Below are positions 24,833 through 61,670 of a stretch of 64,000 bases of DNA, in pieces. The stretch comes from a virus. Location of the stretch: the UHGV virus genome UHGV-0072281; one strand, 5' to 3'. A model generated the notes under the pieces. It worked only from the letters and a program-made list of their open reading frames with translations. It did no database searches and was not told where the DNA came from. The stretch's first letter is position 1; each line of letters starts with the position of its first letter. Position numbers and translations under genes: made by a program.

Positions 24833-25042
24833 TTAGTCTTTTTTGTAGACAATCGCGTTACCGTGCAGTTTGTTGTTACCGGAAATACCGATAACTTTAA
24901 ACGCTTCACCGCCGATCTTTTCAGCTTCGACAGCCAGCTTAGCAGTAACGTCGTCTACGGTATCACCGAAAGCGCTTACGTTACCAATTTTCTTGAACTC
25001 TTCAGGAATGTGTTCAGCAGAAGAGAATTCTTTAATAGCCAT
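24833..25042 (-). CDS. DUF1471 (BhsA/YhcN-family) domain protein
   Basis: 69 aa; C-terminal KVIGISGNNKLHGNAIVYKK matches the family signature (compare BhsA ...ITSVTGPNTLHGTAVIYK, from memory); GGAGAG SD; no signal peptide. Confidence 0.6.
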   Translation of the reverse strand: MAIKEFSSAEHIPEEFKKIGNVSAFGDTVDDVTAKLAVEAEKIGGEAFKVIGISGNNKLHGNAIVYKKD

Positions 25043-25241: not shown

Positions 25242-26207
25242 TCAGCGTGGGCCTGAAGTTGGGCCATGGACGCCGTCATGGATGTGTACGCTGAAGGTAA
25301 TACCGGAAATAACCGCATCCTTAACCGTAAAGATACCCACGCCTTCGCCCGTACCACCGTATTTGAAGTTCTTAGCAACTTCCAAATTACCGGTGAACAT
25401 CGCTTCTTTACCTTCTTGCTTAAAGTTCGGCGTTTTATACGTTGTTGAACCAGAAGCTTCAGTTAGCCAGGTTTCTGTTTTAAAGGTGACCGATTTCGAC
25501 GCTTCGGTATTCCGAACTTCGCATTTCTCATTAATCGTTTTCGTTTCCAGGTTAATCGAACGTTTTGCGTAAATGAATGCATCTTCTTTATTGATGTTCA
25601 CTTTTGAAAGCATCGCGTTCTCAAAACCTAAATCGTCTTCCACCGAGTTAATGTAATACTTATTCCCTTTATGGTCAACGCACTGCCACGACCCGTTAGC
25701 GTTATCGAATTGGAATAACCACGCCGCTTTCTCCCCATTCACCATACTTGTTCTTAGGGTAACGTGTTTGTCAATCGTTGAGACGTTTAACACATACGCG
25801 TTCGACAAGTCATCCGCCATCTGGTTTTCAGGGTCAGCCGACCACGCGTAAACCGCATCTTCTAATCGCTTAACGTTAGCGAAATTCAGATCAATCCAAA
25901 AATAAATATCCGTTTTCCCCAAACGTAACAAGATAACGTAATCTTCTCGTTTAACGTCAGGGGAATTAATTCGGTTGGAGTTAAACTTCCACCACTTTGC
26001 CGTTATCGTGTTACCCGTCTTAATGGTTAGGTTATCTGTTGCACCAGATGTTTCATGCGTCTTTTCAGTTGCTGAAGAAACAGATTGTACCACGGTAGGG
26101 TTAGCAAAGTTAGTTTCAATTGGTATCACTTTTACCCGATCTGTACCACGGGGTTTGTCTTCCGCGACGATACCAATTGAGAAAAAATCAACGCTGGATT
26201 TCTCCAT
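25242..26207 (-). CDS. hypothetical protein (possibly virion-associated)
   Basis: 321 aa ORF; AAGGAA SD; His-rich C-terminus HIHDGVHGPTSGP. Confidence 0.55.
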   Translation of the reverse strand: MEKSSVDFFSIGIVAEDKPRGTDRVKVIPIETNFANPTVVQSVSSATEKTHETSGATDNLTIKTGNTITAKWWKFNSNRINSPDVKREDYVILLRLGKTDIYFWIDLNFANVKRLEDAVYAWSADPENQMADDLSNAYVLNVSTIDKHVTLRTSMVNGEKAAWLFQFDNANGSWQCVDHKGNKYYINSVEDDLGFENAMLSKVNINKEDAFIYAKRSINLETKTINEKCEVRNTEASKSVTFKTETWLTEASGSTTYKTPNFKQEGKEAMFTGNLEVAKNFKYGGTGEGVGIFTVKDAVISGITFSVHIHDGVHGPTSGPR

Positions 26208-26235: not shown

Positions 26236-26258
26236 TCAGATATATTTTACTTAAGTGA
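26236..26258 (+). promoter_or_regulatory. recurring promoter-like motif TCAGATATAT(T/A)TTACTTA(A/G)GTGA, copy 1
   Basis: 22 of 25 positions identical to the copy at 30581..30604; in the long non-coding gap upstream of the family B gene block. Confidence 0.3.
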
Positions 26259-26260
26259 AT

Positions 26261-26287
26261 AGGAGCTGAAGTGCGAATTCAGCTCCT
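26261..26287. other. perfect 10-bp inverted repeat (hairpin) in the largest non-coding gap
   Basis: aggagctgaa-gtgcgaa-ttcagctcct; no flanking U-tract, so not called a terminator. Confidence 0.5.
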
Positions 26288-26595
26288 ATAGGCACGTTTC
26301 TTTCGAAACGGAGTTACCACGTGATTAAGAGACAGACCAATGTCTACTGAGAAGAAAAGCGGATTGGACGAAGTCATCGAACTGTTCAAACGCTACAACC
26401 CAGCTATTCCTCGGTAATCATAGTATTACTTAAAATTTACAGATTGTCCCTTTATTCTGCTACTCGGGATACCGGTAGGGGGTAGGGGGCAATATGTATA
26501 CGGATATAAATAGCGGAGGTATACGTAGTATACCGACATACTCTTCCCAGAGGAACGTAGTGACTTCCTTATTCCAGTTTAGGAGAATAAACCCC

Positions 26596-27330
26596 ATGAG
26601 AGAATTATTAGACGATATCTTTACCAACACCAGTTTAGAACTTTCTTCTACGCTGGTTAACGAGCTAATAAAACAATACCAACCTGCTAAGTTAATCTCT
26701 GTCTGGATAGTTAAACCCGAAGAATATCCAGACAGTGACATTATCGACTGTATGATTGACGAATACGCTATAGGCAGTTACGCCAACCAGATCTACTTTA
26801 TTCTTAATACCGAAACCAGCATCATGTTAATCTATAAGTTGATCAGTGACGCCGAACTTGAAGTTGTGGCTGACCACATTCGTCTTCTTGCGAATGCGCC
26901 TACTGGTTACAAAGTTGCGCTTATTGGTGACGGTTGGCCTTTGCCACCGCTATTCACTTACTTCCCTCTGTTTAAACATGGGATAGGGTTACTCCGTCAT
27001 GCAGAAAATCTTCCCGATAACGTAGAGTTATCACTGCTTGGGCCCGGCATCGATCTTTATCCATTAAAAGACGAGGGCACGCTATATGGTTTGCGCATCT
27101 ATGTTTCTGTGTTAAAGGGATACCGCGTTATTGAATTGATTGCATCAGACTTAGCAAAACAGATCCCCGAAGCAGAAACGATTTCTAAAGCCACCCACCT
27201 GGTTGAAATTAACCCGGACGATCCGTTATTACGGTATCACAAAGAAATTGACCTTCGTAAAATCGCCACGATAAGAGGATGGGATTGTGCTGAGATTACG
27301 AATAATAACCTGTTACTAGTACGTAAGTAA
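26596..27330 (+). CDS. hypothetical protein, paralog family B member 1
   Basis: ORF 26494..27330; start moved to ATG 26596 after AGGAG SD; C-terminal GWDCAEI...LLLV resembles the GW...QLLF motif of the next three genes. Confidence 0.6.
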   Translation: MRELLDDIFTNTSLELSSTLVNELIKQYQPAKLISVWIVKPEEYPDSDIIDCMIDEYAIGSYANQIYFILNTETSIMLIYKLISDAELEVVADHIRLLANAPTGYKVALIGDGWPLPPLFTYFPLFKHGIGLLRHAENLPDNVELSLLGPGIDLYPLKDEGTLYGLRIYVSVLKGYRVIELIASDLAKQIPEAETISKATHLVEINPDDPLLRYHKEIDLRKIATIRGWDCAEITNNNLLLVRK

Positions 27331-27350
27331 AAAACCTAAAGGAGAATAAA

Positions 27351-27908
27351 ATGTCTACTATTGAACTGAAACAACAAGTTATTGGGTTTATTAAGCTGGG
27401 TACAGGTAAACACCGACTTGATTATCCTTGCGTTATACAGTCTAACATTATCCCGGTCGATACAATGATTACCGGTCTTCAGGTTGAAGAATTTGATGGA
27501 GATGCTGTGGTTTGGGAACGCCATTTCACACGACTTAATTATCGTAAAGTCGGAGATAGTTTTACCGAAATATTCCGTCATCTGTTTTCCGGTACCGGAT
27601 GGAAAGTAACGAGTGCGTTCTACGGTGGCAATGTTGTTACGCTTCTAGACAGAGGAGATGCACGTTATCTCGTGAACTTTACTTTCGCAAGACACTATGC
27701 GTATTTCCCTAACCCTCTTACGTGTACGTTAAGTAACCCAGGAATACTACTAACAGATAAAGAAGCAGACGTTCTACTCGCCGAACTGCGAAAAGACGGT
27801 TGCGACGTTGACGATTGGGAAACATTAATCGCGGTTGCCAAAGCACACGGTTGGTACAGCGTACGTAAAATCGGTCAGCAGTTATTATTCTTAGCTTACC
27901 CTGTTTAA
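27351..27908 (+). CDS. hypothetical protein, paralog family B member 2
   Basis: 185 aa; CTAAAGGAG SD; C-terminal GWYSVRKIGQQLLFLAYPV. Confidence 0.65.
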   Translation: MSTIELKQQVIGFIKLGTGKHRLDYPCVIQSNIIPVDTMITGLQVEEFDGDAVVWERHFTRLNYRKVGDSFTEIFRHLFSGTGWKVTSAFYGGNVVTLLDRGDARYLVNFTFARHYAYFPNPLTCTLSNPGILLTDKEADVLLAELRKDGCDVDDWETLIAVAKAHGWYSVRKIGQQLLFLAYPV

Positions 27909-27938
27909 GTAACAAAAAAACCTAAAGGAGAGTAAAAA

Positions 27939-29090
27939 ATGCGAAATATTATTTCTAAACCAGGACATGTCAAGATCCTAAAAGAACTGATGGACAGATG
28001 CTATAATCGGACTTGGCCTCTGCCAAGCTTAACCATCGAGTCTTCATTACAACGCGAGTTGTTTGGTTATAACTTGGGCTGCTGCGTACTGAGTGAATAC
28101 GATGAGATTATCGCGCCTGTCGATGTCTGTACTTACGATGAAGAAATTGAAGGTTACCAGTTCGAGGTTTACACAAATTCTGGACTAAATTACCGTAAAC
28201 TCGTTGTTAGAGAAAAGAGTAGCGGCCGGAAGATTATGTTTAAGGTCTTCCCAAGCGGTAAAGTCAGTAGTTTATGTTTTCAGCTTGAGCAAGTGTCCTT
28301 TCACGGCGCAGCTATTTTAACTAAAGCAGAACGTGCGTTATTAAGCGGGTTAATCGGCTTTGAAGCAAAAACCATCAAAGTAGAACAGGAACTCACACGA
28401 AACGATTTCGGCTCGACCTGGTACGAAAGTTTCTTCCGCTACGAAATTTTAAGTGATAAAGCTATCAAACTCACTTACCGTTCTACCGACGATCTCGTTT
28501 ACCACATTTTAATTAGCGGCGAACCCCATCTGATTATTGAAGACAAAGGAGAAAATCAAATGTCTGGCTTAAGAGACGAATTAGCCCAATTCATTCGTGA
28601 CGTCGAAGAGAAAAGCAAGAGCGATCACATTTTCTCACAACGCTATCCTGAACTTATTGACGAAACCACCGATAGTGTCGTCGATGTTATACGCATTTTC
28701 CCAAGTGGTTTTGCAATCTACCGACTGCCTAGCGTTAATCAGCTTAAAGTCATGGAAATGCTAAAAGACGTTTTAGCAGAAGCGGGTTGGGAATATCGTT
28801 TCGATTGCAATTTCGAAGGGATGGCGTTATTCGTTACAAAGAAAAATTATACGTTGTCAATCGATCTGCCCAAAAGTCAATATTACAGTTTCTTCCCAAA
28901 AGCGTATGACCGCACTGAAAAAGAACCTGCGTTGTTACTCGATGCGGCAGAATCCAATACGCTAATGATGCGTCTGCGGATGGTTGACAAAAAGTTAAAT
29001 ACCGGCCATCTAACGACGATCGGTAAAGATTACGGTTGGAAATCTGTCGAACCGTACGGCAGTCAGCTGCTGTTTGTTGCTGACCTTTAA
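27939..29090 (+). CDS. hypothetical protein, paralog family B member 3
   Basis: 383 aa; CTAAAGGAG SD; C-terminal GWKSVEPYGSQLLFVADL. Confidence 0.65.
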   Translation: MRNIISKPGHVKILKELMDRCYNRTWPLPSLTIESSLQRELFGYNLGCCVLSEYDEIIAPVDVCTYDEEIEGYQFEVYTNSGLNYRKLVVREKSSGRKIMFKVFPSGKVSSLCFQLEQVSFHGAAILTKAERALLSGLIGFEAKTIKVEQELTRNDFGSTWYESFFRYEILSDKAIKLTYRSTDDLVYHILISGEPHLIIEDKGENQMSGLRDELAQFIRDVEEKSKSDHIFSQRYPELIDETTDSVVDVIRIFPSGFAIYRLPSVNQLKVMEMLKDVLAEAGWEYRFDCNFEGMALFVTKKNYTLSIDLPKSQYYSFFPKAYDRTEKEPALLLDAAESNTLMMRLRMVDKKLNTGHLTTIGKDYGWKSVEPYGSQLLFVADL

Positions 29091-29116
29091 TAAGTAAAAA
29101 TACACTTTCTCTAACT

Positions 29117-29142
29117 GCCGCGCTTTAGTCGCGGCTTTTGTT
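29117..29142 (+). terminator. intrinsic terminator
   Basis: gccgcg-ctttagt-cgcggc then ttttgtt. Confidence 0.6.
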
Positions 29143-29157
29143 AAGAAGGAAAAAGAA

Positions 29158-29931
29158 ATGAAAATCCATTTAGATCACCTCTTTAAATCTGAACCGTATA
29201 TGGTTAAAGGTTCGCTGGCTTCATTGTTGCTAGACGATAGATTTCATCGAACGCTGCAATTACAATCGGTCGAATCCGCGCCAACAGAAGACGTGGGTCT
29301 TTATCAACGTATCACTTATACACGTGGAGAATATCGGCGATATAAACCTGATACGCTAACCGTTAAGCTCTGGCAAGTGGCCACAGGCAAAGTATTAACT
29401 TATCGCGCTGTTGGTCTGTACTACGTTGAACGTGCCTACGCATGGTTAGAAGAAGTTAAAGAAATGGATTACGACCGTTTAAGCAAAAGACTACGCGATA
29501 ATAACGCCAGTTTACCGCTACGTAATTATTTCTCCACAATTGAAAATAGTCGTTGTTTCGTTTCACGCGAATCCATGATATTGCCTGGGGCTGATGTTCA
29601 GACGACACTAAAAGATGTGGTTGTGAGGAAAATCTTTCATGAATCTGAACACGTTGGATTTCGTATCTATTTAACGCACAAGAGGCCATTTACCGTGATT
29701 CATCTTGTTACCGTACCCGAAGGCTCGGCAGTCGTACGTGAACTTCCTGACGCACGTGACCGTAGCCCTAATGAGCCACTTTACTTAATGTCAGGAACAA
29801 AATCAGAATCTTTGATGTCCCGTTACAGCATGGTTGATGTTGTTGATACTGCTATGAAATTAGGTTGGAAAGAAGTACAGCAACACGGCAAACAATTGCT
29901 GTTTATCGCAGATGTAAATCTCAATAACTAA
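29158..29931 (+). CDS. hypothetical protein, paralog family B member 4
   Basis: 257 aa; AAGGAAA SD; C-terminal GWKEVQQHGKQLLFIADV. Confidence 0.65.
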   Translation: MKIHLDHLFKSEPYMVKGSLASLLLDDRFHRTLQLQSVESAPTEDVGLYQRITYTRGEYRRYKPDTLTVKLWQVATGKVLTYRAVGLYYVERAYAWLEEVKEMDYDRLSKRLRDNNASLPLRNYFSTIENSRCFVSRESMILPGADVQTTLKDVVVRKIFHESEHVGFRIYLTHKRPFTVIHLVTVPEGSAVVRELPDARDRSPNEPLYLMSGTKSESLMSRYSMVDVVDTAMKLGWKEVQQHGKQLLFIADVNLNN

Positions 29932-29943
29932 AGAGGTGGTACC

Positions 29944-30522
29944 GTGTACCGATTAATAGAAATGAGAAAAGACGTTTGGTTGGAAAACCTCGTCGATGGG
30001 GAGCTTGAGGGAATAGAGCTTTCCTTACCAGAGAGAGCGGACACGGTATTGGCCTTTCTGGTAAAACAGGCAGACCGTGAACCGGTAGGAATCTTCACTG
30101 TGGACTATAAAGACCCGCGAGGGATTCATTTACGGAACATTTGCAGTGGTTTGGAAAACTTACCGGCTAATCCGTTCTTAAACTACGCAAAACGTAAACT
30201 CCGACCGGGACAACACCTCTGGGTAACGTTAGCGCCTGACATTAGAATCATGCGTGACGATTACTCGGCGTTTGTACAGGCAACGAAAGTCAGTCTGTAT
30301 AACCCGAACGCAGAGCGTACCGATATGCCGTTTATAATTACCTTAGAAGACGATGGAACGCAAGAAGGTATTGAGGCAATTACGGAATTAGTAAACTCTT
30401 ATCCGGTTGCCACTATCGAGTTAGAAAACCCAGGTCGTTTACAACTGGGTGACCTGCTCGAATGGATTGAACTGAATACAGAATTCTTAATCAATTCTCG
30501 TCAGTATCGATTCGACGTTTAA
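29944..30522 (+). CDS. hypothetical protein
   Basis: 192 aa ORF with GTG start after AGAGGTGG SD; followed by a strong terminator. Confidence 0.55.
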   Translation: MYRLIEMRKDVWLENLVDGELEGIELSLPERADTVLAFLVKQADREPVGIFTVDYKDPRGIHLRNICSGLENLPANPFLNYAKRKLRPGQHLWVTLAPDIRIMRDDYSAFVQATKVSLYNPNAERTDMPFIITLEDDGTQEGIEAITELVNSYPVATIELENPGRLQLGDLLEWIELNTEFLINSRQYRFDV

Positions 30523-30526
30523 CAAC

Positions 30527-30557
30527 GGTGGGGTGTAAACCCCACCTTTTATTTTTT
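30527..30557 (+). terminator. intrinsic terminator
   Basis: ggtggggt-gtaaa-ccccacc then ttttatttttt. Confidence 0.7.
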
Positions 30558-30580: not shown

Positions 30581-30604
30581 TCAGATATATATTACTTAGG
30601 TGAG
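30581..30604 (+). promoter_or_regulatory. recurring promoter-like motif, copy 2
   Basis: tcagatatatattacttaggtgag, ~50 nt upstream of the SD of the secreted-protein block, just after a terminator. Confidence 0.3.
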
Positions 30605-30651: not shown

Positions 30652-31113
30652 ATGAAAATTTTCACTTCCTTTTTAATCGTTCTTTTCGCAATCGGATTCA
30701 ATACTGCACACGCTGCAATCAATAGTTGGGAACAACTACAGAACCCAGGTCAGGCTGTTTACGAAATTGAAGACACCGCCGGAAACGGACTGTCTATCAA
30801 CTGTGACACTGAAACTGCGAATCGCAAATTTTACGGTCGCATGGTTTGGTATTACGGGGAACCTGTAGGTGCAACTAACGCTGAAGACAACACGCTGGAT
30901 ATCGTCGTAAATGGCAAAACTTACAACATCCCTACCGTGGATGGTAGTGACAAAGCAGAACACGCTTGGGTGGCTTTCGTTAATGCTATCGGCAATGCCA
31001 AAACTTTCAGTGTGAATATCAACGGAAACGAAGCCGCTAACTTTACCGTAGAAGGTGAACGTCTGTCTGAAACTTTCTTCCAGAACTGTGGACACACCCG
31101 TCCTAACAAATAA
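30652..31113 (+). CDS. small secreted protein (signal peptide)
   Basis: GAGGAG SD; N-terminus MKIFTSFLIVLFAIGFNTAHA/A typical of a signal peptide. Confidence 0.65.
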   Translation: MKIFTSFLIVLFAIGFNTAHAAINSWEQLQNPGQAVYEIEDTAGNGLSINCDTETANRKFYGRMVWYYGEPVGATNAEDNTLDIVVNGKTYNIPTVDGSDKAEHAWVAFVNAIGNAKTFSVNINGNEAANFTVEGERLSETFFQNCGHTRPNK

Positions 31114-31141
31114 GTATTAATCTTTTTTAGAGTGCGTGAAA

Positions 31142-31528
31142 ATGAATATCAGAACTATACTTTATACCATCATTATTTTCTGTGCAGTCGGTATTACTGC
31201 CACTTATGCTTTCGGTGAATCGGATGTCCGCTATTACGAACCGGCTCCTGACTCACCGATTATCAACCCGGATGAGACGCCTACGTTAATGCGCAGTTTC
31301 GGTAAACTGCAAGTTTATCGTTTAGTGCGTGGTGAAACGTGTACGGGATTGCTCATTGCTGACACTCGTGCACAAGTCTACCAACGTCTGACGGATATCG
31401 CCTGCGAACAACCAAAAGTCATGTCGGTCAGTATTCATCCGTTAGAGGTCGGTAACTATACTGCTGTGGACTTCTTCCATAATGCAGAACTGATTGGTCG
31501 TATTACTTTAAATCGTAGCGCTGAATAA
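31142..31528 (+). CDS. small secreted protein (signal peptide)
   Basis: ATG 31142 (track shows GTG 31136); N-terminus MNIRTILYTIIIFCAVGITATYAFG. Confidence 0.6.
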   Translation: MNIRTILYTIIIFCAVGITATYAFGESDVRYYEPAPDSPIINPDETPTLMRSFGKLQVYRLVRGETCTGLLIADTRAQVYQRLTDIACEQPKVMSVSIHPLEVGNYTAVDFFHNAELIGRITLNRSAE

Positions 31529-31546
31529 TTTAATGGAGAATTTACA

Positions 31547-32029
31547 ATGAAACGTTTACATACCCTGATGCTCTTCGTGGCTATTCTGTTCACGGGCTTT
31601 AACTTTAACGCAGAAGCGGCTAGTGTAAAACAAGCACTTAGCTGTAACCCGGAAGCCTGGGCTGAACAACCTGGTGCGTGTCCTGATATCAATACGCTCT
31701 ATACCGACGACGCTACTTATAAAGCCGCAATCGATAAAGCGTTGAAACCTGTCGGACTAGACGGGTTATTCGGTAAAGATGGCGTGATGGATGGTCCTGG
31801 CGGCGATGTTTTCCCTGTACAAATCAACGGCAAAGTCTGGCTTGAGTCTACCTCTTGCAAAAGCAATGCTTGTGGTTGGGAATACATCACGACGCTTTAT
31901 AACCCGCAGACCCATGTCGTGGTAGGTTACTATTACAACGTCGACCCAGGTTACCTGGTTTGGTTTGGCGATATCGGCGTTAATGAATTCGCCTATCTGG
32001 TTAAGAAATACGTAGCTACGGTTAATTAA
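31547..32029 (+). CDS. small secreted protein (signal peptide)
   Basis: GGAG SD; N-terminus MKRLHTLMLFVAILFTGFNFNAEAA. Confidence 0.65.
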   Translation: MKRLHTLMLFVAILFTGFNFNAEAASVKQALSCNPEAWAEQPGACPDINTLYTDDATYKAAIDKALKPVGLDGLFGKDGVMDGPGGDVFPVQINGKVWLESTSCKSNACGWEYITTLYNPQTHVVVGYYYNVDPGYLVWFGDIGVNEFAYLVKKYVATVN

Positions 32030-32044
32030 TTTAAGGAGTCTGTC

Positions 32045-32455
32045 ATGAAAACGTTTATCAAAACTTTACTCGTTGCTGTAACTGTTCTGTTCTCTCTTAA
32101 CGTAGCAGCAAAAACAGTAAAACTACCGGCGGGTATCAAATACGTCAACAGTACCGATGAATTCTACTGCACAGAAATTGACGGTCTGTATTGCCAGACA
32201 AAGAATTTGTTTGAATACAAAGGTAACAGATATGTTTTCGTTGTTGAGCAAGGCGGTGCCTGGTGCTACGACAGCCCTATGTCGGTACTCAACCTGGAAA
32301 CTGGGAAAGCACAGAAAATTGAATACAAAGACAACCAATTGTGTTCAGGCGAAAACAAACCGTTCTTCAAAATCAAAAATGGTGTCCCGACTGTAGGTAT
32401 TATCGACACTTCTGGAGCACCAATCGTTGTAGCTCAGGACAAACTTAAAATCTAA
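32045..32455 (+). CDS. small secreted protein (signal peptide)
   Basis: AAGGAG SD; N-terminus MKTFIKTLLVAVTVLFSLNVAA. Confidence 0.65.
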   Translation: MKTFIKTLLVAVTVLFSLNVAAKTVKLPAGIKYVNSTDEFYCTEIDGLYCQTKNLFEYKGNRYVFVVEQGGAWCYDSPMSVLNLETGKAQKIEYKDNQLCSGENKPFFKIKNGVPTVGIIDTSGAPIVVAQDKLKI

Positions 32456-32465
32456 GGAGTAAACC

Positions 32466-32855
32466 ATGCGTCTTATCTGCGCTTTGTTGGCGTTTTTCTC
32501 AATCGGAGTTATGGCTTCTACACACATCGACGATTTATTACTTACCCCGGCAACGAACACAGACTATCACTACAACCCACCGGGTTTTGAAGTCTGCGAA
32601 GGCGATGCAGGCGAATGCCAAGAAGTTGGCGCAGATGGACGCTATATACTCGTAAAAGCAGACGGAGGAACAACCTGCCCTGCGGGTTATTATTTCGTAC
32701 TTGACTCTGTAGCAAAAGAGGTACTTCCTGTAACGACCAAAACGTGTGACCCCACGGTTGTATTAACCCTTGCGAAAAGCAAATCACGTGACCGTCATCT
32801 TATCGTCATCGAAGAACGCGGTGAGATGTTAGGCGCTATCGAATTAGATTACTGA
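32466..32855 (+). CDS. small secreted protein (signal peptide)
   Basis: AAGGAG SD; N-terminus MRLICALLAFFSIGVMAS; followed by terminator. Confidence 0.65.
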   Translation: MRLICALLAFFSIGVMASTHIDDLLLTPATNTDYHYNPPGFEVCEGDAGECQEVGADGRYILVKADGGTTCPAGYYFVLDSVAKEVLPVTTKTCDPTVVLTLAKSKSRDRHLIVIEERGEMLGAIELDY

Positions 32856-33464: not shown

Positions 33465-34073
33465 ATGAACGAAATTACTTTGGTTCGTTTTATCGAAGCG
33501 ATGCGACTAAACGAAGCTAATCCTCACTCTCCGTTATTCATCGATTTAATGGAGGAAGAAGTCGAAGGGTTCTTAGCGTACCCGCGTTTGAAAGCGTATT
33601 TCGAACGTAAAACACCAACCGCTTACGAGAAGTTGATGTACGCGTTAGACAACCGTACTACGCTGAACACCACACCGTTTAAAGCGCTGGAAGCAATAGA
33701 CCCTACCGGGGGTGCAGGTATCCCACAACGTGTTGTGTTCTACTACATCGACAACGGCCGTATTAAAGCCGACGTTGTAAACTGGATCTCCGAAGGGGAA
33801 ATCCCAGAAACGCGTACTTTTAACCTCTGTCCGGTAGAAGAAGGTTGGGTCGCAGGAACGCATTATTCCTATCCGTATCAAAGCATCAAATCACCTTATC
33901 TGTATCCGGTGTATTTAGATGACGTTACGCCAGGAAAATGTATTCCCGTTACCAATCTGATTTGCTTACTGACGATGGAAGTTGTTGCGTCAGACGCAGG
34001 CCAGGCTTGGGTTGAGCAATCGAAAAATATCCAAAACTGGCAGCAGATGGGTTACAAACTCTACCAGCCGTAA
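33465..34073 (+). CDS. hypothetical protein
   Basis: 202 aa; AAGGAAA SD; followed by terminator. Confidence 0.6.
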   Translation: MNEITLVRFIEAMRLNEANPHSPLFIDLMEEEVEGFLAYPRLKAYFERKTPTAYEKLMYALDNRTTLNTTPFKALEAIDPTGGAGIPQRVVFYYIDNGRIKADVVNWISEGEIPETRTFNLCPVEEGWVAGTHYSYPYQSIKSPYLYPVYLDDVTPGKCIPVTNLICLLTMEVVASDAGQAWVEQSKNIQNWQQMGYKLYQP

Positions 34074-34080
34074 TACCACG

Positions 34081-34128
34081 AGAGAACCTTCGGGTTCTCT
34101 CCCTTCTCTTTTATTTTTTTTTCTTTTT
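34081..34128 (+). terminator. intrinsic terminator
   Basis: gagagaacc-ttcg-ggttctctc then T-rich run. Confidence 0.65.
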
Positions 34129-34158
34129 ACACCACGCTCCGTGAATATGGAGGTGGAC

Positions 34159-36663
34159 ATGTTAAAAGTTGAACGTATTGTACTTAAAGGATTTACCGGA
34201 ATGGGGTTACACGAAATCGAAACCTTCGATTTTACTATCCATTCCCCGACCACCATTATCCTCGGTGGTAACGGCTGCGGTAAGACCAGTTTACTGTCCG
34301 TGTTTCTACCTATCGCACCTTCGAAATCCGAATTCCGTGACGGGGGTTCTTACACCAACATCTGTTTGGTTAACGACCATCGTTACAAGTTTAAGGTTGC
34401 GCGTAAAGGCAACTCACTGGTTTGCGATATCGAGAACCTGACGACGGGTACCAAAATCGTCGAACAAGGTAATGCGAAAGTGTATAACTCTCGTGTAGAA
34501 GAAATCACGGGTATTACAAAAGAGATTAAAGAGTTACTGAACGGAGAAGTGCTTTTAACGGATGCAGGAACGGAACTGCGTCGTAAGTGGTTCTACCGTT
34601 TAAGTACGTCAGACTTAACTTACGCGTTAGGTTTTTATCAACGTTTACGAAAAAACCTGACGATGTTAAACGGCGGTGTTGAAATCACCAGCCGCAAGAT
34701 TGCAGAGTTGCGCACTCGCGTGATTGATAACGAGGAAGAACGTCAGCAGTTAGCAACACGGTTAAAAGCATTAGAAGTAGATTTACGTGAACTCAACAAA
34801 CAGATTGAACAACTGCCGGGTCTGAATCGTGACGTTACGGCGGCAACGATTCAATCGCTATTGCTTAAAATCGAAGCACCGATTAATGCTATCTTGGAAC
34901 ACCGTGGCGGATTACCTACGGAAGAACAGGTAGAGGAAGCACGACGCGTTGAAGCCACTGCCCGTGAAGCGGTGGTCTCTGCTGAAACAGAACTGTCCAT
35001 GCTAAACAAAGATTTGTCTTTGTTGATGGACGAGTCTACCCGCCAAGATTACCTGATGCGGAATCACGAGGGGTTAAAGAACACGGTTGCAAAACTGCGT
35101 GAGTTATTAAAGCAGTGGGACACCGAACATCTTTTCCCTGAACTGTTTGCGGAGACCGTTAATATCGACCAGCTTAAAGCAGCGACAGATGCGCGTGTCT
35201 GGGGACAACGTTTAGGAACAACGCTGGATGCTATTAAATCAACGGAACGGTTGAACGTACTGGAAGAGAAACTGTTGACCTTAGACCAAAACTCATCTGG
35301 GTTGCGTGACCGACTACAACGCGTTGAAAACGTATTGCAGAACCTCAACCACGAACGGAATCACTATTTGGAAACCGCCGAGGTTGATTGTCCGCAGTGT
35401 CAATTTAAATTCCGTCCGGGTGTGCGTCGTTCTTTGCCTGAATTGGAAGAAGCCATTCGTGGACAAATGGAGCAACGTAATACGTTACAGACTCAGCTTG
35501 ATTCCGTATTGCGAGACCGTACGGAATTAGAGTCGGACGTTAACTACATGCGTCAAGTACGAGAAATCGTTTTAACGTACTCGAAAGACCCGGTATTGAG
35601 TTTGTTCTTTAAACGTCTCCAGGAGCGGAATGTCTTTACGGATAACCGCAGTCAATTCGGCAGTCTGTGCGCGGAGTTTGATCATGAACTTTATTCCGCA
35701 ATTGAATACCACGAAACGAAACACCGTTTTGCTAAAGCGGAAAAAGAGTGGGCAAACGCAGTTGCAGCGGTAGGTAACGTTGATGGCGCTCTACAGCAGA
35801 AAATTGCCTTCCAGCAGGAGCGTTTGGGTAAGGCGACAGAAACGCTCTCAGAGCGCCGTAGAGAGCACGCAGTTGCTAATGATACCTTTTGTTATCTAAA
35901 CGAACTTAAAGCCACTGTAGACAATTTTAATGCGGTTTTTGAGCGTTTAGAGAACGATGTTAAGGTAACATTAACCAACACAGTGGTCGAAACGTTATTA
36001 AACGCCCGAGAAAACAAGTTGGATGCGTTCACCACAGCACGGGAACGGTACCGTCAGATGGAAAACGAACTCAACCAACTTACTGCGTTAGAAAAGGAGT
36101 TATCGGATTTACAAGCGCAGCAATTCAATAACAAACTGATGATTCAAGCGTTCTCGCCCGAGAAAGGGGTATTACGCAAATACTTCTACAACGCTATCGT
36201 GAGAATCACAGAATTAATGACGCGGTATATCGAACAAGTCTGGACCTACCCTATGCGGGTCATGCCGTGTGACTTAACCGACGGTGACTTAGACTACACG
36301 TTCCCAGTGCAGTTAAAAACCCATCCTGAACCGGTACCTGACGTGCGGAAAGGGTCGAAAGCGCAGCGGGCCATCTTTAATTTGATGTTTCGTTTAACCG
36401 CTTACAAAGCCCTGAAACTTCATCAGTATCCGCTACTGTTGGATGAACCGTCAGAAGGGATGGATGAGGAACACCGAAATAACCTCGTCGGGTTTATTAA
36501 AACCCTGGCGAATTCCGGTGAGTTCTCTCAGTTACTGGTGGTATCTCACGAAGCAGAAATTCATTCAAAACTTAACGAAGCCGCATACTGTGTTATTGAA
36601 CCTGAAGGTATAACACTGCCTGCGGTATACAACGAGGGAGTAAAAATTGTCTACGCAAACTGA
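34159..36663 (+). CDS. Rad50/SbcC-like SMC-family ATPase
   Basis: ORF 33982..36663; start moved to ATG 34159 after GGAGGTGG (ATG 34147 also possible); Walker A GGNGCGKTS, long coiled-coil middle, CPQC zinc-hook-like motif, C-terminal LLLDEP and VVSHE. Confidence 0.7.
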   Translation: MLKVERIVLKGFTGMGLHEIETFDFTIHSPTTIILGGNGCGKTSLLSVFLPIAPSKSEFRDGGSYTNICLVNDHRYKFKVARKGNSLVCDIENLTTGTKIVEQGNAKVYNSRVEEITGITKEIKELLNGEVLLTDAGTELRRKWFYRLSTSDLTYALGFYQRLRKNLTMLNGGVEITSRKIAELRTRVIDNEEERQQLATRLKALEVDLRELNKQIEQLPGLNRDVTAATIQSLLLKIEAPINAILEHRGGLPTEEQVEEARRVEATAREAVVSAETELSMLNKDLSLLMDESTRQDYLMRNHEGLKNTVAKLRELLKQWDTEHLFPELFAETVNIDQLKAATDARVWGQRLGTTLDAIKSTERLNVLEEKLLTLDQNSSGLRDRLQRVENVLQNLNHERNHYLETAEVDCPQCQFKFRPGVRRSLPELEEAIRGQMEQRNTLQTQLDSVLRDRTELESDVNYMRQVREIVLTYSKDPVLSLFFKRLQERNVFTDNRSQFGSLCAEFDHELYSAIEYHETKHRFAKAEKEWANAVAAVGNVDGALQQKIAFQQERLGKATETLSERRREHAVANDTFCYLNELKATVDNFNAVFERLENDVKVTLTNTVVETLLNARENKLDAFTTARERYRQMENELNQLTALEKELSDLQAQQFNNKLMIQAFSPEKGVLRKYFYNAIVRITELMTRYIEQVWTYPMRVMPCDLTDGDLDYTFPVQLKTHPEPVPDVRKGSKAQRAIFNLMFRLTAYKALKLHQYPLLLDEPSEGMDEEHRNNLVGFIKTLANSGEFSQLLVVSHEAEIHSKLNEAAYCVIEPEGITLPAVYNEGVKIVYAN

Positions 36664-40150: not shown

Positions 40151-40188
40151 CCCCTAATCCGATTGGATTAGGGGTACTTTTATTTATT
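40151..40188 (+). terminator. intrinsic terminator
   Basis: cccctaatcc-gatt-ggattagggg then tacttttatttatt. Confidence 0.7.
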
Positions 40189-41684: not shown

Positions 41685-41718
41685 CCCTACTCCCGGAGGA
41701 GTAGGGTTAATTCTTTTT
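41685..41718 (+). terminator. intrinsic terminator (CCCTACTCC stem family)
   Basis: ccctactcc-cgga-ggagtaggg then ttaattcttttt. Confidence 0.7.
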
Positions 41719-42297: not shown

Positions 42298-42334
42298 CCC
42301 TACTCCTTTTCGGGAGTAGGGTAATTTCTTTTAG
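42298..42334. terminator. bidirectional intrinsic terminator (CCCTACTCC stem family)
   Basis: ccctactcc-ttttcg-ggagtaggg, T-rich 3' on plus, A-rich 5' (T-run for the convergent minus gene). Confidence 0.7.
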
Positions 42335-61616: not shown

Positions 61617-61632
61617 CACCTACCCTACTCCT

Positions 61633-61670
61633 AGACAGGAGTAGGGTATTTTCATTTTTTACCCTAAAGG
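61633..61670 (+). terminator. intrinsic terminator (CCCTACTCC stem family)
   Basis: ccctactcc-tagaca-ggagtaggg then tattttcatttttt. Confidence 0.7.

Follow-up and report, generated by a model that had tools for sequence, protein, structure and literature searches.

Gene Content and Genomic Setting of the Array

Four consecutive co-oriented ORFs of 244, 185, 383 and 257 aa (genes A to D) lie on the + strand, directly past a divergent baseplate gene and ahead of an SMC/SbcC-like gene, exactly where an earlier note on this DNA had located them. The window (the whole 64-kb stretch that was analysed, from the virus genome UHGV-0072281) belongs to an uncultivated enterobacterial phiKZ-like jumbo phage with SPN3US, phiEaH2 and Derbicus as relatives, and its own clade has genomes of ~225 kb. 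Members of the same clade also turn up in Enterobacterales isolates from clinical and wildlife sources, recorded there as circular "plasmids" of ~222 kb. The genes considered here are the following:

25242-26207, − strand: baseplate protein gene, phiKZ ORF164 homologue, divergent from the array
26596..27330, + strand: gene A, ORF of 244 aa, divergent borderline member
27351..27908, + strand: gene B, ORF of 185 aa, minimal member (alpha/beta N-domain of ~115 aa plus the module)
27939..29090, + strand: gene C, ORF of 383 aa (N-half, residues 1-~205, plus a B-like unit, residues 211-383)
29158..29931, + strand: gene D, ORF of 257 aa, canonical member
29944..30522, + strand: gene E, 192 aa, context only, phrog_20879 (PHROG match, 8.6e-32)
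33982-36663: SMC_N ATPase gene (SMC/SbcC-like), phiKZ ORF165 homologue

The start of gene A was placed at 26596 and not at the in-frame ATG at 26494, because this frame is broken by a 34-nt insertion in the relatives L012-L015 and L020 and because the nucleotides of the region are invariant to a degree not typical of coding sequence. Homologues of SPN3US gp171 and gp168-170 are found upstream of the array, and the order baseplate gene, module gene, SMC-like gene is also that of SPN3US, phiEaH2, Phobos, CR5 and Derbicus. In SPN3US, gp173 and gp186 are the counterparts of phiKZ ORF164 and ORF165, and gp175 has homologues in PhiEaH2 and CR5 and none in phiKZ (PMC5105663 supplement). The locus lies in an accessory island flanked by two core genes (the phiKZ ORF164 and ORF165 homologues), and D is the probable positional orthologue of the single-copy genes SPN3US gp175, phiEaH2 gp097, CR5_165, Phobos gp176 and Derbicus gp170. 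Gene E starts 12 nt past gene D, with which it is probably co-transcribed; it has no similarity to A-D (BLASTP) and is not a family member. It was rejected as an obligate partner of the array, its homologues in SPN3US and phiEaH2 lying not next to the module gene but two genes after it, and none being found in Derbicus-type loci.

The Shared C-Terminal Module

The earlier note had reported that all four genes end in a shared block. An HMM built only from homologues outside the clade (the outgroup-only HMM) was run over every ORF in the window and in seven loci, and it retrieved D (E = 2.5e-20), C (2.4e-14) and B (1.7e-13), far beyond chance. The statistical similarity of these three C-termini is thus supported by a profile drawn from other phages alone. 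B, C and D are paralogues, with hhalign probabilities of 98-99% for the module (B 98.3%, C 98.0%) and pairwise BLASTP E-values of 1e-10 (B-C), 1.5e-11 (C-D) and 2e-4 (B-D). Gene A is not significant against the outgroup-only profile (E 0.71 in the ORF search, 52.6% with hhalign) and has neither the polar PD..DR[ST]..NEP loop nor the G.QLLF signature. It reaches E 1.5e-4 with a leave-out HMM (single-sequence search) and 3e-5 against D across 112 aa (BLASTP), and is a borderline member, linked to the family through D only. The modules were delimited as follows:

27115..27327, + strand: module of A, degenerate, polar loop lost, ending in ...RGWDCAEITNNNLLLVRK
27699..27905, + strand: module of B, hydrophobic core and GW...GQQLLF kept (outgroup-only HMM, hhalign)
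28890..29087, + strand: module of C, FFPKAYDRTEKEPALLL...GWKSVEPYGSQLLFVADL (outgroup-only HMM, hhalign)
29725..29928, + strand: module of D, full motif, LPDARDRSPNEPLYLMS...GWKEVQQHGKQLLFIADV (outgroup-only HMM, AlphaFold2)

The conserved unit covers ~65-70 aa, rather than ~20 aa, and carries the motif PDxxDR[ST]xNEPxYLMS...GWxxVxxxGxQLLF. Its predicted secondary structure is beta-alpha-alpha-beta-beta, and the structure prediction that had been suggested returned the same succession for the 80-aa C-terminus of D (AlphaFold2, pLDDT 82). Of the polar loop (P-D-x-x-D-R-[ST]-x-N-[DE]-P), which precedes strand 1, D has the complete form (PDARDRSPNEP) and C a part (PKAYDRTEKEP), whereas B (PNPLTCTLSNP) and A (PEAETISKA) have a degenerate version; since it is degenerate in these last two, the four proteins may not share one partner. 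Modules are mostly neutral to acidic, and their median pI of 6.3 indicates that the module is not basic; A and C are strongly acidic (net charges of -13 and -9). No further copy of the module was found in the 64-kb window. The module is a small domain at the protein C-terminus that had not been described before.

The length differences, all attributed at first to the N-terminal parts, do not form a simple extension series but two sub-pairs. B is like the whole C-terminal half of C (B6-181 versus C211-381, 96.9% with hhalign), and A shows weak similarity to D along its entire length (78.5%, E 1.7e-5, 242 columns, hhalign). Apart from this weak A-D signal, the N-terminal parts of A-D have no significant mutual similarity, and homology among them, including an internal duplication within C, was discarded as unsupported. 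The N-half of C is clade-specific, being present only in C orthologues. The AlphaFold2 model of full-length B has a pLDDT of 84 and a pTM of 0.71.

Distribution of the Family and Database Matches

The module was matched by 58 of 1.84 billion protein clusters, all 58 of them from phages. It occurs either alone (phage proteins of 72-150 aa, about one third of the family representatives) or at the C-terminal end of proteins of 184-534 aa, the N-termini of which form ~18 unrelated groups. In most comparisons, conservation is higher in the module than in the N-terminal parts. Stand-alone modules lie in accessory regions of other phages, by Dam, HTH, N6_N4 methyltransferase, Bro-N, DUF488 and Tad2-like genes. 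The architecture that had been proposed, a common C-terminal interaction module with diversified N-terminal parts, was thus recovered; its "interaction" component is suggested indirectly by the near-neutral pI and by the lack of any match to a catalytic or nucleic-acid-binding family and of any informative fold match.

D matched the C-terminal 60-70 positions of PHROGs 26772, 33648, 24489 and 18480 (4e-11 to 1e-3; 4.3e-11 for 26772), always at the C-terminal end of the profile, and the stand-alone modules match these same ends. C matched PHROG 26772 (4e-4), B reached only 0.21-0.31 and A gave no match. At least five PHROGs of "unknown function" (26772, 33648, 24489, 18480 and 27793) are one domain with different N-termini.

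Searches of Pfam, NCBIfam, PADLOC and PDB sequences with A-D and with the module profile returned nothing above threshold. A-D are devoid of HTH or other DNA-binding families and of fibre-like repeats, beta-helices and carbohydrate-binding domains, and the Pfam, PADLOC and NCBIfam searches gave no toxin, immunity, fibre or secretion signatures for them. Several faint matches were rejected: (i) the HicA toxin (PF07927, dsRBD-like), for one of nine module sequences (E 0.19) and none of the four full-length window proteins, (ii) DUF6301 (PF19818), for one of nine module sequences (E 0.008) and none of the window proteins or of ten stand-alone modules, (iii) Tudor_5 and USP8_interact, both sub-threshold matches of single sequences, and (iv) DpdF (PADLOC), for C only (14.7 bits, E 0.002, 88 of 545 profile positions, sub-threshold) and not for A, B or D. 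Foldseek against BFVD matched only uncharacterised proteins from the same jumbo-phage family. Literature searches returned nothing that characterises SPN3US gp175 or any of its homologues; in those papers, "gp175" denotes the phiKZ protease.

Copy Number and Evolution of the Array

With tblastn, matches were located at one place per genome in 32 isolated phages, and Seoulvirus, Erskinevirus, Derbicusvirus and Machina-like phages carry one copy at the same locus. Four copies in fixed order are present in 11 of 11 clade genomes and in an E. coli "plasmid" record; a search for related loci with a narrow alignment gave only 11 IMG/VR loci. Despite amino-acid divergence of up to 59%, A-D keep intact reading frames, an unchanged order and nearly constant lengths in the 11 genomes and in two "plasmid" records.

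The array evolves faster than its surroundings, in a mosaic manner and under purifying selection. Between clade members, identity is 70-81% for A, 42-46% for B, 41-72% for C and 79-93% for D, compared to 88-100% for flanking proteins. Omega reaches 0.3-0.47 in the array (0.32-0.34 for gene A) compared to 0.04-0.15 for the flanks, and dS is saturated for the allele classes of B and C. No pairwise omega reaches 1, so the values do not demonstrate positive selection, and the rate pattern could reflect relaxed constraint together with recombination. Alleles of the array genes reassort between genomes, segments 1-205 and 206-315 of gene C reassort independently among alleles, and many allele classes are each maintained across multiple samples. 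The four genes lie in a recombination hot spot, where change is far more rapid than in the remaining genome, which suggests host-interaction genes.

Putative Signals for Expression

The following non-coding features were identified around the genes:

26448..26572, + strand: invariant 125-nt non-coding stretch directly 5′ of gene A (clade alignment)
29117..29139, + strand: terminator-like GC hairpin followed by a T-run, in the C-D spacer (consensus scan)
30527..30546, + strand: terminator-like hairpin closing D-E (consensus scan; 8-bp stem with 6 GC pairs, then a T-run)

Each of A-D has its own strong ribosome-binding site. The near-identical CTAAAGGAG initiation regions that had been described for all four genes exist at B and C, whereas A (TTTAGGAGAATAAA) and D (AAGAAGGAAA) differ. 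Moreover, the window has six copies of the CTAAAGGAG 9-mer, and four of these belong to unrelated genes. This marks it as a strong Shine-Dalgarno context of a generic kind, and it was ruled out as an array-specific element. The 67-nt C-D spacer, hairpin included, is conserved in all examined clade genomes, and this hairpin divides A-B-C from D-E.

The 125-nt stretch is ~100% identical across eight clade genomes (one SNP and one loop flip), while the neighbouring genes have a dS of 0.3-0.9. It contains a hairpin (GGTATAC-GTA-GTATACC, 26518-26534), its RNA fold is unremarkable (z = -1.4), and it matches no Rfam family or tRNA. Present as a single copy in the window and absent from the isolated phages, it is possibly a leader, a regulatory region or a recombination anchor. 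The scan for sigma-70-type promoters gave fewer sites than expected by chance. A scan for phiKZ-type AT-rich motifs gave two intergenic TA[GT]TATTAC sites only, at 26421 and 30588, a number too small to indicate promoters. Early-promoter motifs vary between phages (review PMC7598289).

Interpretation of the Array

We tentatively favour, at somewhat less than an even chance, the reading that the array encodes accessory proteins that are not part of the virion, each combining a constant docking domain with a variable N-terminus and evolving under host-interaction pressure; their uncharacterised family would have expanded from one gene to four in a lineage of enterobacterial phiKZ-like jumbo phages. 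The module would fold autonomously as an alpha/beta domain, with the PDxxDR[ST]xNEP loop followed by the GWxxVxxxGxQLLF hairpin, and may dock one conserved partner of the phage or of the host, while the unrelated or mosaic N-terminal domains would supply differing specificities or activities. Translation of A-D would be independent, starting at a separate Shine-Dalgarno site for every gene, and transcription would probably run through A-B-C to the terminator and then through D-E, downstream of the invariant 125-nt leader. The locus diversifies by duplication, allele replacement and intragenic recombination, a pattern that is expected of host arms-race genes (counter-defence, host take-over).

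Other explanations were weighed against this one. The module itself could be the effector, for instance by inhibiting, as a small protein, a target of the host or of the phage, with N-termini that were added secondarily for regulation, localisation or stability and do not carry the specificity. That about a third of the representatives are little more than the module, that stand-alone modules sit in unrelated, non-jumbo phage contexts and that conservation across the family peaks in a polar surface-type loop (PDxxDR[ST]xN[DE]P), as expected of a functional site, all argue for it. We nevertheless consider it unlikely: A and B, in which this loop is degenerate, are both kept in 11 of 11 genomes under purifying selection, and the N-terminal domains are large (115-315 aa), show conservation inside their respective series of orthologues or alleles and, in the model of B, are confidently folded. 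Alternatively, the proteins could regulate transcription, translation or RNA metabolism by binding nucleic acids, with the module as a small RNA- or DNA-binding alpha/beta domain. All scores that could speak for this are in the noise range and below family thresholds, and the charge of the modules and of A and C and the lack of any HTH or other DNA-binding family in A-D make this quite improbable.

The neighbourhood of baseplate and fibre genes, and a rapid mosaic diversification that resembles that of receptor-binding proteins, would fit virion-associated host-range factors (accessory components of the baseplate or fibres, or assembly chaperones), with the constant C-terminal module docking on the baseplate and the variable N-termini contacting the host surface. 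However, GeLC-MS of SPN3US virions lists gp167-171, gp173 and next gp193, and not gp175 (PMC5105663 Table S4), although the adjacent low-abundance gp173 was detected (PMC5105663 supplement); this is indirect evidence, from a single data set of one relative. Annotators of the related Erwinia phages likewise mark the neighbouring genes as virion structural and not the module gene. Furthermore, the array and the baseplate gene are transcribed away from each other, the contigs with stand-alone modules that were examined hold no recognised tail-module families, A-D lack the fibre-type features searched for, and the polarity is the reverse of that of typical receptor-binding proteins (conserved N-terminus, variable C-terminus), all of which renders a virion role very unlikely. 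Finally, the raised omega, the loss of most family signatures by gene A and the fact that no function could be assigned to A-D are what dispensable, drifting ORFan DNA would show, in which decaying duplicates without selected function retain the motif as a remnant of common origin. With four ORFs intact and ordered at near-constant length, omega well below 1, a strong ribosome-binding site at each gene and many maintained allele classes, drift can hardly account for the array.

A bolder version of the docking hypothesis, which we regard as unlikely, would make the module a new universal adaptor of large phages that plugs diverse N-terminal "warheads" into one conserved hub, the array a recombining counter-defence cassette locus of nucleus-forming jumbo phages, and the 125-nt leader both a regulatory element and a recombination anchor. 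Candidate hubs would be a host defence or proteostasis hub, or the phage nucleus-import or early-compartment machinery.

Nucleus-forming jumbo phages are being studied as candidates for therapy and as models of viral compartmentalisation, yet the majority of their accessory genes lack an explanation. Loci with such an evolutionary signature usually harbour functions in counter-defence and host range, which makes the array a concrete and small experimental target. The present analysis merges PHROG clusters into one domain family with defined boundaries and motif, and this family marks a fixed, hypervariable accessory locus that has grown, in the clade of the window, to four independently diversifying genes. 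If the proteins are ordinary dispensable accessory genes, this interest is local only.

Comparison with Known Systems

The closest counterparts are the single-copy genes of isolated jumbo phages: SPN3US gp175 (412 aa), phiEaH2 gp097 (223 aa), CR5_165 (364 aa), Phobos gp176 (319 aa) and Derbicus gp170 (356 aa). All are annotated as "hypothetical protein", and their modules are 37-45% identical to that of D. They have the same position (first long + strand gene past the divergent baseplate gene, within the ORF164-ORF165 island) and the same architecture (variable N-terminus, constant C-terminus), but there is one copy per genome compared to four in the clade of the window, and their N-termini are unrelated to those of A-D. 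Since these homologues have no known function, grouping the array with them gives no explanation. PHROGs 26772, 33648, 24489, 18480 and 27793 split by cluster what is one domain, for which Pfam and NCBIfam have no domain-level model.

Among other multi-paralogue families of nucleus-forming jumbo phages are the PF12699 inner-body or injected proteins and the DUF7941 "fibre cloud" proteins of Goslar and phiKZ (bioRxiv 10.64898/2026.04.21.720040). They resemble the array family in their clustered paralogues, in the combination of one module with variable domains, in their restriction to nucleus-forming jumbo phages and in their poorly understood roles. However, both are abundant virion proteins and the DUF7941 module is N-terminal (bioRxiv 10.64898/2026.04.21.720040), whereas the module of the array family is C-terminal and its SPN3US member was not detected in virions. 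A-D have no sequence relation to either, since both models, PF12699 and DUF7941 (PF25613), were in the Pfam library searched and neither matched A-D at E up to 1.

Families that join a constant anchor to variable domains by cassette exchange are known among phage receptor-binding proteins and polymorphic toxins. Compared to these, the array has the reverse polarity, its constant part being C-terminal, and its SPN3US homologue was not detected in virions. The likeness, by analogy only, lies in one conserved end, an unrelated or mosaic other end, and recombination breakpoints at domain boundaries.

Results

An array of related genes

An earlier note had described four consecutive genes of 244, 185, 383 and 257 aa, and ORFs of these lengths are indeed present. 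They lie directly upstream of a gene, E, that pairwise BLASTP found unrelated to any of them:

26596-27330, plus strand: gene A, ORF of 244 aa
27351-27908, plus strand: gene B, ORF of 185 aa
27939-29090, plus strand: gene C, ORF of 383 aa
29158-29931, plus strand: gene D, ORF of 257 aa
29944-30522, plus strand: gene E

Pairwise BLASTP connected B with C (1e-10 over 110 aa), C with D (1.5e-11 over 65 aa), B with D (2e-4) and A with D (3e-5 over 112 aa), and found no significant similarity between A and B or between A and C. Against circularity, a profile including only homologues from outside the clade (the close relatives of about 225 kb that carry all four genes) was scored on every ORF of the window and of seven loci from relatives. 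It retrieved D (2.5e-20), C (2.4e-14) and B (1.7e-13) but not A (E = 0.71), and profile-profile comparison with it gave probabilities of 98-99% for B, C and D and of 52.6% for A. A and D aligned with each other over 242 columns (78.5%, E = 1.7e-5). Judged by these three sets of sequence scores, B, C and D are certainly paralogues, and A is plausibly a highly diverged paralogue, apparently related to D along its whole length. The C-terminal block that had been ascribed to all four proteins is thus shared by B, C and D, but A lacks a significant profile match and is linked to them via D. Furthermore, B aligns with residues 211-381 of C (96.9% in profile-profile comparison), so that C consists of an extra N-terminal half of about 205 residues followed by a B-like unit. 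Apart from this unit, no mutual similarity was detectable among the remaining N-terminal parts of A-D.

The conserved unit (hereafter the module) has about 65-70 residues and the consensus iPDpgDRTxNePxYLMSak...Ak..GWsxVqxxGxQLLFIa. Its polar loop is complete in D (PDARDRSPNEP), partial in C and degenerate in B and A. AlphaFold2 predicts that the last 80 residues of D form a compact beta-alpha-alpha-beta-beta domain (mean pLDDT 82) and that in full-length B an alpha/beta N-domain formed by residues 1-115 precedes the module (pLDDT 84, pTM 0.71). The module has a median pI of 6.3 and a near-neutral charge, and matched no enzyme or nucleic-acid-binding family.

Host phage and relatives

The region belongs to a phiKZ-like jumbo phage. 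The gene directly upstream of the array encodes a protein sharing 64-73% identity with its counterparts in Erwinia phages Stratton, phiEaH2 and Asesino and in Salmonella phage SPN3US:

25242-26207, minus strand: baseplate assembly protein (PHROG 3216, 1e-113)

Comparison with isolated phages at the DNA level gave no match. Orthologues of D (79-98% identity) were found on contigs of about 223-227 kb that stem from metagenomes or from the sequencing of Salmonella, Shigella and E. coli, and the six locus proteins (baseplate protein, A-D and E) of the IMG/VR contig UViG_3300014543_000002 are 100% identical to those of the window.

Two relatives were deposited as complete circular "plasmids": NZ_CP173450.1 (221,873 bp; E. 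coli 98232, a human urinary isolate) and NZ_CP134650.1 (222,441 bp; an Enterobacter ludwigii isolate from a gull). Both show 93-95% DNA identity to the window over the array region. Orthologues also occur on contigs of about 225 kb in Salmonella and Shigella isolate assemblies. Together, these records suggest that a phiKZ-like phage persists in Enterobacterales isolates as a carrier-state, pseudolysogenic or plasmid-like element.

A gene between a fibre-like gene and the baseplate gene (24833-25042, minus strand) encodes a 69-aa YdgH/BhsA/McbA-like (DUF1471) protein, a family usually comprising enterobacterial periplasmic stress proteins. SPN3US retains the gene at the corresponding position, as do the clade relatives, the E. 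coli "plasmid" record among them.

Distribution of the module and conservation of its locus

When 1.84 billion cluster representatives were searched exhaustively with a profile, only 58 proteins were retrieved at E values up to 1e-3. They display three forms: (i) stand-alone modules of 72-150 aa, (ii) C-terminal modules on proteins of 184-534 aa, whose N-termini fall into about 18 unrelated BLAST groups and (iii) rare N-terminal modules. The five stand-alone members whose contexts were inspected all lie in phage-like surroundings, near genes for Dam, HTH, N6_N4 methyltransferase, Bro-N, DUF488 and Tad2-like proteins, an Rnl1-type RNA ligase and glutaredoxin with dNK. Isolated enterobacterial jumbo phages carrying the module include Seoulvirus, Erskinevirus, Derbicusvirus, the Machina and Huxley group and PhiEaH1; it also occurs in Klebsiella and Serratia phages of about 300 kb and in one Shewanella phage. 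In every isolated-phage record it is found at one place, annotated as hypothetical or not at all.

SPN3US, phiEaH2, Phobos, CR5 and Derbicus each carry one module-bearing gene at the corresponding locus, on the plus strand, directly after the divergent baseplate gene and upstream of a gene whose counterpart in the window is:

33982-36663: SMC/SbcC-like ATPase

PhiEaH2 and CR5 possess homologues of the single-copy SPN3US protein, gp175, but phiKZ does not; SPN3US gp173 and gp186 correspond to phiKZ ORF164 and ORF165, respectively (Thomas et al. 2016, PMC5105663, Table S1). The numbering of ORF164 and ORF165 is consecutive, so that they should be adjacent in phiKZ; in that case two core genes bracket the block containing the module family, and this block is an accessory island. 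The SPN3US virion proteins listed include gp167-171 and gp173 (4-8 spectra only), the next entry being gp193 (PMC5105663, Table S4); gp175 was therefore undetected in virions.

Five consecutive small ORFs of 153, 130, 160, 136 and 129 aa (30652-32855, plus strand) all have signal-peptide-like hydrophobic N-termini and share only 18-20% identity. The first was assigned to Pfam YfjT by gene callers in relatives, with no match in the present Pfam scan. These ORFs may represent another paralogue cluster of the accessory island, one of secreted proteins.

Signals within and around the array

Near-identical initiation regions had been proposed for the array. B and C do share CTAAAGGAG, but A and D have other Shine-Dalgarno sequences; with six copies of CTAAAGGAG in the window, of which only those of B and C lie in the array, this sharing is nothing special. 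The A-B and B-C spacers (20 and 30 nt) each contain a strong Shine-Dalgarno site, the C-D spacer has 67 nt and the D-E gap 12 nt. The following features punctuate the locus:

26448-26572, plus strand: invariant non-coding stretch of 125 nt upstream of A
26518-26534: 7-bp hairpin GGTATAC-GTA-GTATACC within this stretch
29117-29139: conserved GC hairpin with T-run, within the C-D spacer
30527-30546: second terminator-like hairpin, after E

Across eight genomes the 125-nt stretch hardly varies, one SNP and an exact flip of the hairpin loop in one locus (L016) accounting for all differences; dS of the adjoining genes is 0.3-0.9. It includes three GTATAC palindromes and a G-rich run (GGTAGGGGGTAGGGGG), gave no Rfam or tRNA match, has an unremarkable folding energy, is unique within the window and was not matched in isolated phages. 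In some relatives 34 nt are inserted between the stretch and gene A, which rules out the in-frame ATG at 26494 as a start codon; A therefore starts at 26596.

Other elements were noticed nearby. Between the baseplate gene and the invariant stretch is a small ORF of about 26 codons (26341-26421, plus strand; MSTEKKSGLDEVIELFKRYNPAIPR) that has a GGAG-type ribosome-binding site of its own. The ORF persists, with a divergent sequence, in all aligned relatives. The divergent intergenic region also contains a hairpin at 26258-26290 (GGAGCTGAA...TTCAGCTCC), immediately beyond the baseplate gene's 5′ end. It shows compensatory stem changes in relatives (GGGGCTGAA...TTCAGCCCC, GGGGTTGAA...TTCAACCCC) and may terminate transcription or have a regulatory role. 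The motif TA[GT]TATTAC, which we take to resemble the phiKZ early-promoter motif, has only two matches in the window, a number too small for a conclusion. Both fall in intergenic DNA of the plus strand, at 26421-26429 ahead of the array and at 30588-30595 ahead of the putative secreted-protein cluster.

Elsewhere, intergenic inverted repeats CCCTACTCC-N(4-6)-GGAGTAGGG occur at 41685-41706, 42298-42321 and 61623-61646, with a variant (CCCTAATCC...GGATTAGGG) at 40152-40173. These repeats are confined to the spaces between genes. Their exact 9-mer is found in six copies, forming three inverted pairs; with one mismatch allowed, 17 sites were found, against an expectation of about 6.6. They resemble a terminator or REP-like hairpin family that has been used repeatedly.

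Evolution of the array

The order A-B-C-D is kept in all 11 clade genomes that were compared. Between genomes, the flanking proteins are 93-100% (baseplate protein) and 88-100% (E) identical, whereas identity drops to 70-81% for A, 42-46% for B, 41-72% for C and 79-93% for D. Likewise, omega (Nei-Gojobori) is 0.04-0.15 for the flanks, 0.12-0.37 for whole array genes and up to 0.47 for the N-terminal parts of A and C; being below 1 throughout, it indicates that the array genes are functional. The module is usually the most conserved segment.

More than 30 allele classes were observed. Between those of B and C, dS is saturated, indicating that long-diverged alleles were swapped in and that the genes did not change in place. 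Alleles also reassort: locus L020 resembles L012 in its baseplate protein and A (99%) and carries a C allele of the L016 type (94% identity to L016 versus 44% to L012). Across residues 1-205, 206-315 and 316-383 of the window's C, one orthologue (P0102) shows 91, 42 and 63% identity and another (P0105) 35, 91 and 94%. By these sequence comparisons, C is recombinant, with a breakpoint at the start of the B-like unit.

Discussion

In the best-supported reading, which we infer and hold tentatively, A-D are a non-virion accessory family. One gene would have given rise to four by lineage-specific expansion, a constant, autonomously folding C-terminal domain being joined to exchangeable N-terminal domains. 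The module would be a protein-docking unit and the array a set of host-interaction genes, e.g. for counter-defence or take-over. Several observations point to these roles: the module also exists alone, is near-neutral and matches no enzyme or nucleic-acid-binding family, and the locus is an accessory island undergoing strongly accelerated mosaic evolution.

It is unlikely that the module is itself the effector. That the proteins are nucleic-acid-binding regulators seems quite improbable. A role as virion or host-range accessories is very unlikely, the SPN3US virion proteome counting against it, and functionless drift is hardly credible given the retention of the genes and omega values below 1.

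The most novel view, rather unlikely, is that the locus houses recombining counter-defence cassettes and that the module is their adaptor domain. Until now, the family had been seen solely as nameless "hypothetical proteins", divided among PHROG clusters. Compared with the literature and libraries searched, the definition of the domain, its phage-only and very narrow distribution, the fixed hypervariable locus and the four-gene expansion appear to be new; in kind, the array adds one more family to the clustered paralogues among jumbo-phage accessory proteins.
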